DNA of 64,000 nucleotides, taken from the IMG/VR virus record IMGVR_UViG_3300040856_003274, positions 96,001-160,000 of that record. One strand, 5' to 3'. Source of the stretch: a virus. Shown piece by piece: positions 60,443 to 64,000 of the stretch (the first letter of the stretch is position 1; each line of letters starts with the position of its first letter). The translations under genes and the position numbers were made by a program. The notes beneath the pieces are model-generated. The model saw nothing but the letters and a program-made list of their open reading frames with translations, had not been told where the DNA came from and did no database searches.

Positions 60443-60665
60443 CTGTATCGCAGGTGAGCTTTTCGGAGAGCTTTTCGAGCTCACAGGAGGCAAAGTGGAG
60501 ATAACCCGAAAGCCCACATTTCTTACTCACACTGTATGGGTCGTTTATTACTTAGAGCTAGATAAATGGGCTCAGGTGACCTCTCCACATTTAACAGACG
60601 CTCTCAGAGATGCGATCTCTAATATTAAGAGGCACGATCCGTTAGAGGGGGTTGAGGTATTATGA
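60429..60665 (+). CDS. hypothetical protein
   Basis: 78-aa ORF overlapping both neighbours; RBS AAGGAG upstream. Confidence 0.5.
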   Translation: MKSSSCIAGELFGELFELTGGKVEITRKPTFLTHTVWVVYYLELDKWAQVTSPHLTDALRDAISNIKRHDPLEGVEVL

Positions 60666-61129
60666 ACCCTAAACACCTCAAAGTGCGTGTCGCTCAGTGT
60701 GATCTTATTGCCTCTAACTCGCCTTGCCCGCGCAGGAAAGTAGGGGCGTTAATCATTGACCCTGAGACTAATGTTATCATTAGCGAGGGTTATAACGGCA
60801 CTCCTAGAGGCTCAGATCACCTTTACTGCGGAGGCGCTGGCTGTAAGCGTGAAGAGAAAGACATACCTAGCGGCACAAGAAATGACGTAGGTTGCCACCA
60901 CGCGGAAATGAACGCGATCCTCAACGCTAGCCGAGTAGGTCAATCGACGTTGGGGAAGTGGCTTATCGTCAACTGCGACCCATGTCTAATGTGCGCTAAA
61001 GCAATCCATCATAGTGGTATCGTTAAGGTTTACGCGCCTCTCGATACCTCGTATGATGGTGAGGGACTAAGCTATCTTAGGAAAAACGGTATTGAAACAT
61101 CCTCTCTAAAAGGGGCTACAAGAGAATGA
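60662..61129 (+). CDS. dCMP deaminase (ComEB/T4 Cd-like)
   Basis: SPCPRRKVGA, GYNG, HAEMNAI and PCLMC zinc deaminase motifs. Confidence 0.92.
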   Translation: MNPKHLKVRVAQCDLIASNSPCPRRKVGALIIDPETNVIISEGYNGTPRGSDHLYCGGAGCKREEKDIPSGTRNDVGCHHAEMNAILNASRVGQSTLGKWLIVNCDPCLMCAKAIHHSGIVKVYAPLDTSYDGEGLSYLRKNGIETSSLKGATRE

Positions 61130-61449
61130 TTAAGCAGATACCCAACAGATACAAAATACCTTTAGACGACATAGAAAAGATCGTCATAACCATAGAAGCC
61201 TACCAAAAGCTAATCTCCTTTTATGAGGAGTGGCTCGAAAAGCATGGCCCTTACGAGTATGTTGACGAGAGGATTTGCGCCCTTACCAGTGAGTATTGTG
61301 AATACTTGTTTGCTAAAGAGTATGCGAAAGAGGGGGCTCGAACATTTGGCTCGGATATGAACATCTATAGGTCTGTAGAGAAGGACTTTAAGAGGCATTT
61401 CCCTCACTTAGAATTTATACCTCCGAGGAAGTCTGATGATAGAGATTAA
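61126..61449 (+). CDS. hypothetical protein
   Basis: 107-aa ORF with ATGA overlap upstream. Confidence 0.55.
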   Translation: MIKQIPNRYKIPLDDIEKIVITIEAYQKLISFYEEWLEKHGPYEYVDERICALTSEYCEYLFAKEYAKEGARTFGSDMNIYRSVEKDFKRHFPHLEFIPPRKSDDRD

Positions 61450-61987
61450 GACAGGAGATTGTGTCGAGCGCCTAAAAGACCTAGAAGATAACTCAGTTGA
61501 CGCGGTGATTTGCGACCCACCTTACGGACTTAGGTTTATGTCTAAAGGTTGGGATGATATTGGTGACGGCAGTCAGCAAAGAGAGTGGCATAGAGCATGG
61601 CTGACAGAAGCTCATAGAGTCTTAAAGCCTAATGGAGTCCTCAAGGCTTTCTCAGGGACTCGAACCTTCCATCACCTAATCGCGATGATGGAAGAAATAG
61701 GCTTCTCAGAGTTACGGATAGAGGCTTGGAGTTATGGATCGGGTTTCCCCAAATCTCACAACGTGGCTCTTGGTATAGACAAGAAATACGGTTACGGTAA
61801 CAGAGGTAGGGCAATCCCTACTGCTTCTCGCTTCCAAGCCTCTGACATACAACAAGAAAACAAGCTCACCTCTAACCCTGTGGAAGCATACGAAGCTAAA
61901 ACAGAAGCCTCCAAGCCTTTCCAAGGCTACGGTACGGCTCTAAAGCCTTCATGGGAGCCTATCTGTATTGGAGTAAAACGATGTTAA
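61436..61987 (+). CDS. DNA N6-A/N4-C methyltransferase, N-terminal catalytic fragment
   Basis: GDC, DNSVDAVICDPPY, RVLKPNG, WSYGSGFPKS, GYGTALKPSWEPI; ends without an FxGxG SAM motif. Confidence 0.88.
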   Translation: MIEIKTGDCVERLKDLEDNSVDAVICDPPYGLRFMSKGWDDIGDGSQQREWHRAWLTEAHRVLKPNGVLKAFSGTRTFHHLIAMMEEIGFSELRIEAWSYGSGFPKSHNVALGIDKKYGYGNRGRAIPTASRFQASDIQQENKLTSNPVEAYEAKTEASKPFQGYGTALKPSWEPICIGVKRC

Positions 61988-62172
61988 CCTGTCGAGTCTG
62001 CTTAAACGAGAGTAACCGTTCTTCAATCTGCTCTAAATGTGCAAAACTTACAGCAGAGGGAATAATGGATAAACTGGATAAGAAGAATCAGTTAAAACCT
62101 CTAGAAGCATATAGAAGAACCAACTCAAAAGATGTCTTTGTAGGTGCTCTTAACGGGAGTCGTTCACCATGA
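61981..62172 (+). CDS. small zinc-finger protein
   Basis: MLTCRVC...ICSKC (two CxxC); ATG 61981 overlaps the MTase fragment 1 stop and has GGAG upstream; track start 61951 is less likely. Confidence 0.5.
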   Translation: MLTCRVCLNESNRSSICSKCAKLTAEGIMDKLDKKNQLKPLEAYRRTNSKDVFVGALNGSRSP

Positions 62173-62567
62173 TTGTCACATTATTAAGAAAGCCCTTAGA
62201 GGGAAGCGTAGCCGATAACGTACTGGAACATGGGTGCGGGGCTCTCAACATAGATGCCACTAGGGTAGGTTATGCAACAAAGGGCAGGTGGCCTGCTAAC
62301 TTTATCCTTACTCACCTAGACGTTTGTATTCCTCAAGGTGAAGATTGGGCTTGTGTAGAAGGCTGTCCTGTCAGAGAGCTAGACCGACAAAGTGGTCATC
62401 AAAAGAGCGGTATCGCAGGGTCTAAAAGCAGGGCTTGGGGGGTGGCGGGTAAAGGGCAGCTCTCTTCTACAGAAGATGGAGTAGGATGGAAGGCTTACGG
62501 ATCAGAGGGTTATGGAGATGAGGGTGGAGCTTCGAGGTTCTTCAAACAATTTAAGGAAACAAAATGA
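62169..62567 (+). CDS. DNA methyltransferase, middle fragment
   Basis: RKPLEGSVADNVLEHGCGALNIDATRV, GRWPANFIL, CPVRELDRQSG, YGDEGGASRFF: the middle region of long phage beta-class MTases. Confidence 0.8.
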   Translation: MIVTLLRKPLEGSVADNVLEHGCGALNIDATRVGYATKGRWPANFILTHLDVCIPQGEDWACVEGCPVRELDRQSGHQKSGIAGSKSRAWGVAGKGQLSSTEDGVGWKAYGSEGYGDEGGASRFFKQFKETK

Positions 62568-63007
62568 AAGATGACTTCATGGATCGGATAGACGACATTC
62601 TTAACCCGCCTAATGAAGAGGGCAACACAGGCTTCCCTGCTACCCTCTCAGCACAAGAGCTGCCGAGTAACATTAAGGTGCTCCTCGAACGCTTCTTATC
62701 TGCTTACGAAGCGAACAACTGTATCGACAACAGGGCTTCGGAGAAGCTCTTAGAAGATACCGCAATAAGCGTCCTTCTCGAAATAGCTGAGAGGGTAAAG
62801 AGCGTCAGCCTTGAAAGCCACATCTTAAGATTAGGTGGTGAGATTATCTCTGCAAGCTACACATTAGAAGGGAGACTCACAGTATATAAGCTCCCTCCTA
62901 ACATCATTGAGCCCCTAAAAACAGAGATCAAAATAAGGCTGTATAACCCAATGGTGCATGTTATTTTCGAGGGTGATACTCTCAAGGTATTAGAAGAGTC
63001 TGACTGA
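62564..63007 (+). CDS. hypothetical protein
   Basis: 147-aa ORF, ATGA overlap upstream, TGATG overlap downstream; no motif recognised. Confidence 0.55.
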   Translation: MKDDFMDRIDDILNPPNEEGNTGFPATLSAQELPSNIKVLLERFLSAYEANNCIDNRASEKLLEDTAISVLLEIAERVKSVSLESHILRLGGEIISASYTLEGRLTVYKLPPNIIEPLKTEIKIRLYNPMVHVIFEGDTLKVLEESD

Positions 63008-63666
63008 TGATTGATTACCTTAAAGATATGATCTCACCGCCCTTGGAAGAGGTTGTTATATTAGAGGGTACGACTTCTGAGCTTAATCTCTCTAAGTTGC
63101 CTGACTGCTACGCGCATGGTTTAATCTTAAAGGGAGAGCCTACAGAAGAGGAGTCTTCTGAGATATTCAGAGTCCTAAAGCCAGGTGCTCACGTCGCCAT
63201 AATACCTGAAGGAAGCGGGGTTGGACACAGCGGTGTGATTTCTTTAGAAGATGCAGGCTTCGAGGTTAGAGACGCGATCTTTGTGGCAGAAGACCCTGAC
63301 AGCTTTTATTACACCTCTAAAGCCTCACGGAGAGAGAGGGAAGCAGGGCTTAAAGAAGCTGAAAAGGGTAATAGGTCTAACCCACACCCTACCGTCAAAC
63401 CTATAGACATCATGGAGTGGTGTGCGAGGGACATTGGAAAGAGTAGTCTCGTCGTAGACCCTTTTATGGGTAGCGGTACGACAGGGATAGCTATGGCTAA
63501 ATCAGGGCATAGCTTCATCGGCATTGAGCTCCAAGAAGAGTACGCAGAAGTCTCTCTTAAACGTATACAGCATTGGAGTCCTAACAGTGAGGCAACTTTT
63601 AATGGAGAGCCTGCTAAGAAAGACCTGACAGTATTAGGAGGACTCTTTAGTCTCTTTGGCGATTAA
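63007..63666 (+). CDS. DNA methyltransferase, SAM-binding fragment with degenerate catalytic motif
   Basis: FYYTSKAS..ER, HPTVKP, VVDPFMGSGTTG, FIGIEL; its N-half echoes the catalytic domain (LPD, RVLKPG, LEDAGFEVRD) but DPPY is replaced by GEPT. Confidence 0.85.
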   Translation: MIDYLKDMISPPLEEVVILEGTTSELNLSKLPDCYAHGLILKGEPTEEESSEIFRVLKPGAHVAIIPEGSGVGHSGVISLEDAGFEVRDAIFVAEDPDSFYYTSKASRREREAGLKEAEKGNRSNPHPTVKPIDIMEWCARDIGKSSLVVDPFMGSGTTGIAMAKSGHSFIGIELQEEYAEVSLKRIQHWSPNSEATFNGEPAKKDLTVLGGLFSLFGD

Positions 63667-63716
63667 GCGTCTATTATTCTGTCTCACCAAACACTGGATA
63701 CAAGAGGTGAGATGAG

Positions 63717-64000
63717 ATGTTTAGTAAGCAAGCGAAGCGCGAAGCGATCCGCAAAGTGGCGAAGGCTAATGTTAAGCCTGTGCGCCAACGTACTCAATAC
63801 AACTGCATGACCACAAGCATGGCGATGTGTTTAGAAGCTCTAGGCATCCCAAAAGCAGAGTGTGAGATTAACGTTGTAAACAAGGTGATGGGTGCGATCC
63901 CCATGAAAGGTGCTTCATGGGAGCAGGCGCTCGCGTGTGCTCAGCATTACGGCATTCGAGCTACCCTCACAATGCCGAGCACTGTACGCCAGCTCAAAGA
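63717..64000 (+). CDS. C39-like cysteine peptidase (5' part, cut by window edge)
   Basis: Manual translation MFSKQAKREAIRKVAKANVKPVRQRTQYNCMTTSMAMCLEALG...; Q-x5-C....AM.L pattern of C39 peptidases; RBS GAGGTG; not in the ORF track. Confidence 0.6.
   Translation, partial: MFSKQAKREAIRKVAKANVKPVRQRTQYNCMTTSMAMCLEALGIPKAECEINVVNKVMGAIPMKGASWEQALACAQHYGIRATLTMPSTVRQLK

Follow-up and report, generated by a model that had tools for sequence, protein, structure and literature searches.

The 64,000-nucleotide (nt) window analysed here comprises bases 96001–160000 of the 168-kb IMG/VR record IMGVR_UViG_3300040856_003274 and carries, on the plus strand at 61436–63666, five tightly coupled open reading frames (ORFs) in which every start overlaps the preceding stop by 1–7 nt. 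Three of them, which we designated F1, F2 and F3, are likely to encode a single beta-class DNA amino-methyltransferase that is made as three polypeptides and rebuilt non-covalently, with the F1 and F2 variants found in relatives serving one hub; we refer to this set of three genes as the kit. The other two, Zn63 and O147, lie in the F1/F2 and F2/F3 junctions, respectively. An earlier sequence-only reading had described the same five ORFs, with DPPY in F1, the middle of the enzyme in F2 and FYYTSKAS, HPTVKP and DPFMGSGT in F3, and the ORF list agrees with it on these points.

Profile comparisons revealed that the methyltransferase family PF01555 is matched by complementary parts of two of the products, F1 at profile positions 1–92 and F3 at positions 159–219; likewise, within one PADLOC Type II methyltransferase model of 260 positions, F1 matches positions 11–132 and F3 positions 183–255. 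Aligned to intact one-chain references (Mycobacterium phage Omega gp155 and the IMG/VR loci L049, L050 and L054), F1, F2 and F3 tile the homologues in order: F1 has the C-terminal end ..KPSWEPICIGVKRC, F2 starts with MIVTLLRKPLEG and ends with GGASRFFKQFKETK, and F3 takes up the enzyme at residue 100 (FYYTSKAS), followed by HPTVKP and then by DPFMGSGT. From the location of these ends and starts on the intact homologues, both junction segments are therefore present twice, and the earlier proposal that the pieces tile one enzyme in order, with doubled junction strands, held in this alignment to intact N6_N4_Mtase homologues. Over its full length, F2 shows 40–46% identity to the middle of intact mycobacteriophage methylases; it had no match in Pfam, NCBIfam or PADLOC, HsdS/Methylase_S included, and a comparison of its profile with the PDB retrieved no solved homologue. 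The kit thus has the PF01555 features motif IV (DPPY, in F1) and motif X plus FxGSG (in F3), in the order motifs IV–VIII, target-recognition domain (TRD), motif X and motifs I–III, but departs from the family in that the one polypeptide is replaced by three ORFs with stop codons, an arrangement conserved in about 40 contigs. As judged from its sequence, the DPPY motif suggests that N6-adenine is the methylated base.

The sequence-only reading had overlooked residues 1–99 of F3, which appear to be a degenerate copy of the N-terminal half of the enzyme (RVLKPGAHV.., LEDAGFEVRDAIFV) with KGEPT in the place of DPPY; residues 48–91 share 43–49% identity with the N-terminal half of intact methylases. 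This putative pseudo-half is an element beyond those described in that reading.

Runs of estuary and seawater metagenomes contain the stretch. Identical or near-identical metagenome contigs from other, independent estuary and seawater studies span the junctions and show the pieces arranged in the same way, so that the arrangement cannot be put down to faulty assembly. Back-translated searches of IMG/VR recovered 54 loci on 39 distinct contigs, to which we added the ENA contigs L060 and L061. F1, F2 and F3 are kept as separate ORFs in the 39 IMG/VR contigs, many of them of 170–376 kb, with identities of 47–94%. Intact one-frame homologues were found only at 32–43% identity and in other kinds of contigs (L049–L057), and the sole fusion within the clade joins F2 and F3 in L037 (477 amino acids, aa). 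All 29 distinct F1 copies have DPPY, and none of the 19 F3 copies departs from HPTVKP, FxGSG or the EPT pseudo-motif; across 36 F2 copies, the ends of F2 and its GRWPAN motif are invariant or nearly so. Against the nearest relative, L005, the ratio of nonsynonymous to synonymous substitution rates (dN/dS) was 0.06 for F1, 0.15 for F2, 0.15 for F3, 0.24 for Zn63 and 0.18 for O147, and it ranged between 0.05 and 0.31 in 16 further pairs from other lineages with usable dS.

With separate pieces recurring in all of these contigs, each under purifying selection, the earlier argument against frameshift decay stands. Nor did we see intact genes and neutral drift among close relatives: the near relatives are split, and intact genes appear only at the low identities given above. 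It is extremely improbable, and already largely refuted, that the pieces are remnants of a broken gene or are rejoined by splicing, frameshifting or protein splicing, even though they are colinear and F1 and F2 of relatives overlap at an A-rich ATGA. The low dN/dS of all the pieces argues against it, as do breakpoints that are conserved in about 40 contigs along with permuted orders and unequal copy numbers, and the unrelated coding genes that lie between the pieces here. A search of 60500–64000 for Rfam families, introns among them, was negative at E≤1; Pfam showed no Hint domain in the ORFs of the window, and neither Pfam nor PHROGs showed a Hint or endonuclease domain in Zn63 or O147, while the inteins of relatives sit at sites other than the breaks. 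Additionally, fusion would not restore the ancestral chain, because the junction strands are duplicated. As a particular case, we rejected the joining of F1 to F2 by a −1 frameshift at the A-rich ATGA; a whole ORF separates F1 and F2 here, and the fusion would double a strand.

Several relatives carry insertions in these genes. The F3 from L048 (6190–8103, 638 aa) has an insert with Hint and LAGLIDADG domains, an intein, near HPTVKP; the F1 from L009 (2495–4258, 588 aa) contains an insert of around 400 aa after residue 101, with no Pfam match; and the intact methylase from L057 (4959–8087, 1043 aa) contains two inserts. Selfish elements thus repeatedly target this methylase gene family in relatives. 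Separately, in the pilon-polished ENA contig L060 (4189–4476) F2 is frameshifted just before GRWPAN, and the out-of-frame text downstream still reads GRWPANFIL-like; either an assembly error or a genuine loss of F2 could account for this.

The copy number of the pieces varies in a characteristic way. Whole-record searches of five nearly complete relatives (227–376 kb) revealed one to four copies of F1, one to four copies of F2 and exactly one F3, all in one cluster. Across contigs F3 is single and always last, and there are at least 14 different gene orders, among them F1-F2-F3, F2-F1-F3, F1-F1-F2-F3 and F2-F1-F2-F1-F1-F2-F1-dCMP deaminase-F3; a deoxycytidine monophosphate (dCMP) deaminase gene is interleaved in the cluster in several lineages. 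The window contains the minimal set, with one F1, one F2 and one F3.

Sequence variation among the F2 copies is not spread evenly, but follows a common plan consisting of an N-terminal handle, variable region 1 (VR1), the GRWPAN anchor, a variable distal part and a C-terminal handle. The 36 F2 copies consist of 18 VR1 types and 22 distal types, joined in many combinations. Between paralogues of one genome the handles are 82–100% identical in DNA (68–100% for the N-terminal handle of F2), whereas the sequences between them cannot be aligned; likewise, the F1 loop shows 15–55% nucleotide identity between paralogues of one genome, as compared to 82–100% at the ends of the gene. To judge by these alignments, such homogeneous handles around unalignable interiors bear the signature of cassette exchange by recombination. 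Comparison with L005 provides an example close to the window: F1 and F3 are 94 and 92% identical, respectively, and the C-terminal part of F2 is 99% identical, whereas its N-terminal part has been replaced (44% identity), with the L005 F2 being 93 aa longer overall. Additionally, one F1 loop type precedes five different F2 VR1 types in different phages. The F2 from the window is the shortest form, lacks VR1 and resembles the intact actinophage type. The sequence-only reading had raised the idea of a swappable specificity, and the recombined F2 from L005, the one to four F1 and one to four F2 per F3, and the shuffled F2 blocks are consistent with it.

A second F1 subtype, around 50% identical to the main type and distinguished by SGMP, TLKKSWEP and a long basic loop, occurs in L011 (334–927), L023 (6184–6768 and 7981–8568), L037 (4415–5011), L044 (2536–3120) and L047 (3230–3817). 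It often has no F2 behind it, and may use a different partner or none.

The split could also be neutral, the gene having been cut by insertions or duplications and still yielding one methylase of a single specificity, with the extra F1 and F2 copies as redundant or decaying spares. Genes split by selfish elements and yet functional are known in T4-like phages, for example the split nrdA of Aeh1. The inteins and other in-frame inserts in the methylase family of relatives would fit this explanation, as would the 1:1:1 set of this phage and the truncated or frameshifted copies of some relatives. We nevertheless consider it unlikely. The extra copies are under purifying selection, paralogues within one genome included (dN/dS of 0.15 for two F1 paralogues of L023), and the variable blocks are highly diverse whereas the handles are homogenised. 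Likewise, permuted gene orders such as F2-F1-F3 are not produced by simple insertional splitting, and a shared hub is indicated by F3 staying at exactly one copy while F1 and F2 vary in number.

We modelled the three chains together in three runs, using author-made alignments and with F1 as the scored partner. The model reached an ipSAE interface score of 0.90 in three out of three runs, versus 0.37 for the best control; at least 93% of the contacts were common to the runs, and the predicted local distance difference test (pLDDT) of the partner was at least 78. In the best-defined contacts of the model, F1 residues 22–25 (beta4) pair with F3 residues 148–151 (beta1), A97 and W98 from F1 (beta6) pair with F100 and Y101 from F3, and the segment 165–173 from F1 meets F2 at 26–28 and 43–45. 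Residues 43–45 of F2 pair with F1 169–173; the N-terminal handle of F2 touches F1 through residues 2, 4–5, 13–19 and 24–29, and the C-terminal handle through residues 121 and 124–125. As modelled, the beta4/beta1, beta6 and F1/F2 contacts correspond to the canonical beta-class geometry, and the model supports binding of F1, F2 and F3. Folded alone, F3 had a pLDDT of 62.7, with a confident N-terminal domain and a poorly defined S-adenosylmethionine (SAM) half, as expected if F1 must complete the half-fold; a Foldseek search with this single-chain model gave weak matches to beta-class methylases, with a template modelling (TM) score of around 0.26. Conservation, selection and the three-chain model together favour the hetero-oligomeric methyltransferase proposed by the sequence-only reading, in which catalysis, a variable middle and SAM binding would reside on separate polypeptides.

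According to this reading, F1 would provide strands beta4–beta7, the catalytic DPPY and a variable beta6–beta7 loop; F2 would provide the target-recognition region, held between two conserved handles; and F3 would be the single shared hub, with motif X, the FxGSG SAM pocket and a conserved, catalytically dead N-terminal pseudo-half. Beta4 from F1 would lie against beta1 from F3 and so close the Rossmann sheet, and F2 would pack on the beta7 region of F1 via its NID and GRWPAN motifs. In relatives, a single F3 would work with as many as four variants each of F1 and F2; recombination at the conserved handles would shuffle the variable blocks of these variants, and one hub serving several specificities would protect phage DNA from host restriction. 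The kit is therefore probably a modular enzyme for escaping host restriction. In a more ambitious form, which we put forward only tentatively, the enzyme would be fully combinatorial: any F1, through its beta6–beta7 loop, and any F2, through its two shuffled regions, would plug into the single F3 to give up to m × n specificities, and recombination between co-infecting phages would renew the repertoire. The pseudo-half and the duplicated strands would then be docking sockets, and Zn63 and O147 might tune assembly.

Alternatively, the pieces might have left DNA methylation, with F3, together with F2, being a non-catalytic SAM- or DNA-binding protein, or with F1 and F2 being decoys or regulators. 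The conserved dead motif IV (EPT) of F3, which could fold as a pseudo-enzyme, and its N-terminal domain, confidently folded alone, would fit such a role. It is very unlikely, since a DPPY invariant in all F1, and FxGSG and HPTVKP invariant in all F3, are hard to explain without catalysis, and the model rebuilds the canonical active-site geometry, with beta4 beside beta1.

Several points weigh against a modular three-chain methyltransferase. With a single F1 and a single F2, a modular advantage cannot act within this genome, and its F2 lacks VR1. The F2 from L060 and an F1 from L048 are frameshifted, and these could be assembly errors or signs that the pieces are dispensable. A direct profile comparison between the N-terminal half of F3 and F1 was weak (probability 7%, E 0.005). 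Assembly relies on one structure model, whose high score may reflect likeness to the solved one-chain enzymes RsrI, CcrM and M1.HpyAVI; the same ipSAE mark was reached by 58 out of 80 solved complexes and by two out of 110 mismatched pairs, a calibration that is only rough for author-made alignments. Finally, strand beta4′ of F3, if placed next to beta1, would block docking of F1 there.

The two interleaved ORFs are more restricted than the kit and are confined to the narrow subclade of this phage. Zn63 was found as three protein clusters among 5.8 billion proteins, all of 63 aa and all between an F1 and an F2; its likely start is the ATG at 61981, preceded 7 nt upstream by GGAG, which gives the 63 aa called in the protein collection. 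Among 1.84 billion proteins, O147 is strongly matched by two representative relatives, and closer copies are present in L005 and L060; a homologue lies between F2 and F3 in L061, and another lies behind the upstream 107-aa gene in L062. Both ORFs are absent from around 36 of the 39 contigs that keep the split; in most of these, F1 and F2 overlap directly and F2 and F3 overlap or are a few bases apart. Zn63 accompanies F2 forms with and without VR1, and therefore does not compensate for a missing VR1. Zn63 had no family match in Pfam, PHROGs, NCBIfam or PADLOC, and O147 had no family or fold lead in Atlas or in those same four collections. A seawater metatranscriptome library contains a 202-nt contig identical to positions 62614–62815, in O147, although DNA carry-over is possible; the same RNA run had no contig on F1, F2 or F3, and is silent on the transcription of the methylase pieces.

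These data bear on the part that the sequence-only reading tentatively gave to the interleaved ORFs, that of taking part in the system; in a wider version of it, both would be working parts of a five-component complex, possibly as assembly factors, extra DNA-binding subunits or regulators. In its favour, each of the two occupies one junction exactly, with stop and start codons overlapping, keeps the same place in L005, L060 and L061, and is under purifying selection; the zinc-ribbon-like CxxC..CxxC of Zn63 precedes a basic tail, and O147 is matched by the RNA-library contig. The five-part system is, even so, improbable, and the comparison with relatives did not support it: nearly all contigs that keep the split do so with neither ORF, their pieces abutting directly; both have few relatives in billions of proteins and no family or fold match; the O147 homologue from L062 is not behind F2; Zn63 is not linked to the presence of VR1; and in other relatives it is a dCMP deaminase gene that is interleaved, so that the cluster as a whole is prone to interleaving. 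From their sequences and distribution, we read Zn63 and O147 as real, selected, lineage-specific genes that settled in permissive junctions, and as late additions and not core subunits.

Residues 31–61 of O147 (62654–62746) show weak matches to repeats, in four to five stretches each, in two proteins of 630 and 986 aa (P0006 and P0007), and may be a short repeat motif common to other proteins.

The single-chain PF01555 enzymes are the nearest known systems, the closest by sequence being actinophage methylases such as Omega gp155, and the solved ones M.RsrI, CcrM and M1.HpyAVI. They share with the kit the series DPPY ... KPxxEPI..RKP ... NID ... GRWPAN ... ASRFFY.AK ... HPTVKP ... FxGSG, in the same order, and, according to the model, the same predicted sheet topology. 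Unlike them, the kit consists of three genes, has doubled junction strands and a dead N-terminal half on the SAM piece, and its relatives multiply F1 and F2 but never F3. METTL3-METTL14 is a pair of an active and a dead methyltransferase, in which METTL14 has the pseudo-motif IV EPPL. By analogy, the EPT motif from F3 may be a conserved pseudo-motif IV in a partner kept for structure or substrate binding; in F3, unlike in METTL3-METTL14, the dead half and a live SAM half are in one chain.

The natural split DNA methyltransferases known to us are all rare, fixed C5 pairs. M.AquI and M.EcoHK31I are natural two-subunit C5-cytosine methyltransferases, and fragments of M.HhaI, M.BspRI and M.SssI complement each other (PMC3404938). 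The analogy with the kit would be that one methyltransferase fold arises from separately translated polypeptides, with the cut of M.AquI also in the variable region; however, M.AquI and M.EcoHK31I are of the C5 class, consist of two pieces and form a fixed pair, in which no module is spare or shuffled and no hub is shared. In Type I systems, specificity resides in a separate subunit, HsdS, whose two TRDs are reshuffled (PMC3510504, PMC6158711). F2 may resemble HsdS in having specificity on its own polypeptide and two variable regions between conserved segments, where recombination would make new combinations, and the overlapping start and stop codons of the kit, suggestive of translational coupling, recall those of HsdM/HsdS. 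HsdM keeps its catalytic fold intact, whereas the Rossmann fold of the kit is cut through the middle, and F2 lacks a match to the HsdS family. The Bacillus phages SPR, phi3T and rho11s have multispecific C5 methyltransferases (Trautner et al., 1996, as cited in PMC12707154). As far as that secondary account goes, they would be comparable in opposing several target-recognising modules on one catalytic core to many host restriction systems, although their modules are in tandem in one polypeptide, whereas the modules of the kit have genes of their own, with extra copies of the catalytic half as well.

The literature searched, whose coverage was incomplete, contained no account of a phage beta-class methylase that is split or made in three pieces; this is not proof of novelty. 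If the reading is correct, the kit differs from the fixed C5 pairs in being a three-way split, widespread and selected, of a beta-class amino-methyltransferase, and would give large phages a new means of varying their DNA modification in the face of host restriction. It would likewise be a natural template for programmable split methyltransferases, and would account for many of the genes called as "partial methylase" in phage genomes from metagenomes. The 1:1:1 set from the window would be the simplest version to reconstitute, and it suggests that the system tolerates unrelated genes in its junctions. The features of the locus are collected in Table 1.

Table 1. Features of the split methyltransferase locus; coordinates are positions in the window.
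Feature	Coordinates	Strand	Description and basis
F1	61436..61987	+	Putative catalytic-half subunit, 183 aa; beta4–beta7 of beta-class amino-methyltransferase; PF01555 1–92; phrog_67
Motif IV DPPY, F1 residues 27–30	61514..61525	+	Invariant, 29/29 aligned F1 copies
F1 variable loop, approximately residues 107–160, between EAWxYGSGFPK and GWGTALKPSWEP	61754..61915	+	Unalignable between loop types; flanks conserved
Zn63, CxxC-x9-CxxC zinc-ribbon-like ORF, F1/F2 junction	61981..62172	+	Longest ORF, 61951–62172, 73 aa
F2	62169..62567	+	Putative middle/target-recognition subunit, 132 aa; short copy without VR1; phrog_3008
F2 conserved N-terminal handle MIVTLLRKPLEGSVADNVLEHGCGALNIDATRVG	62169..62270	+	Opens with second copy of beta7/RKP strand; nearly invariant, 36 F2 copies
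F2 internal anchor GRWPAN, residues 39–44	62283..62300	+	Invariant or nearly so, 36 F2 copies
F2 conserved C-terminal handle GGASRFFKQFK	62523..62555	+	Copy of segment repeated in F3 as SFYYTSKAS
O147, 147-aa ORF without assigned family, F2/F3 junction	62564..63007	+	ORF list
F3	63007..63666	+	Putative SAM-binding hub subunit, 219 aa; dead N-terminal pseudo-half plus motifs X, I–III; PF01555 159–219; 19 relatives aligned
F3 pseudo-motif IV HGLILKGEPT, residues 37–46, in place of D..I.DPPY	63115..63144	+	H37, G38, I40, L41, E44, P45 and T46 invariant in 19 F3
F3 FYYTSKAS, residues 100–107	63304..63327	+	Enzyme resumes after TRD; alignment to intact homologues
Motif X HPTVKP, F3 residues 127–132	63385..63402	+	Invariant in 19 F3
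Motif I DPFMGSGT, F3 residues 151–158	63457..63480	+	SAM-binding loop after beta1; D151, P152, F153, G155, S156, G157 and T158 invariant in 19 F3

CheckV estimated the record to be 40% complete at 168 kb; the source is therefore a very large phage. A search of the phage collection with the DNA of 61000–64000 gave no match, and protein searches retrieved only single-chain relatives, all below 60% identity, so there is no cultured relative to rely on. The kit closes a co-directional and tightly packed block of genes for replication and nucleotide metabolism, with a DnaB-like helicase, a primase-like protein, DUF3310, the dCMP deaminase and the 107-aa ORF. Promoter and terminator scans found no promoter- or terminator-like sites above chance on the plus strand within the kit.

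The dCMP deaminase gene is at 60662–61129 in the window, upstream of the kit, and inside the cluster in several relatives (L020, L023, L035, L043 and L044 among them), in the order last F1 or F2, deaminase, F3; this placement may be a recurrent linkage or simply a permissive insertion site. The next ORF downstream of the kit (63717–64000, running off the end of the window) encodes a C39-like peptidase, with Peptidase_C39_2 matched on the homologue from L060. Outside of the window, the same phage has a second PF01555 methyltransferase (G000:C1:21213–22199; L001:1351–2337), a single chain of 328 aa in which the SAM-binding part precedes the catalytic part, and which is thus permuted relative to the split enzyme.

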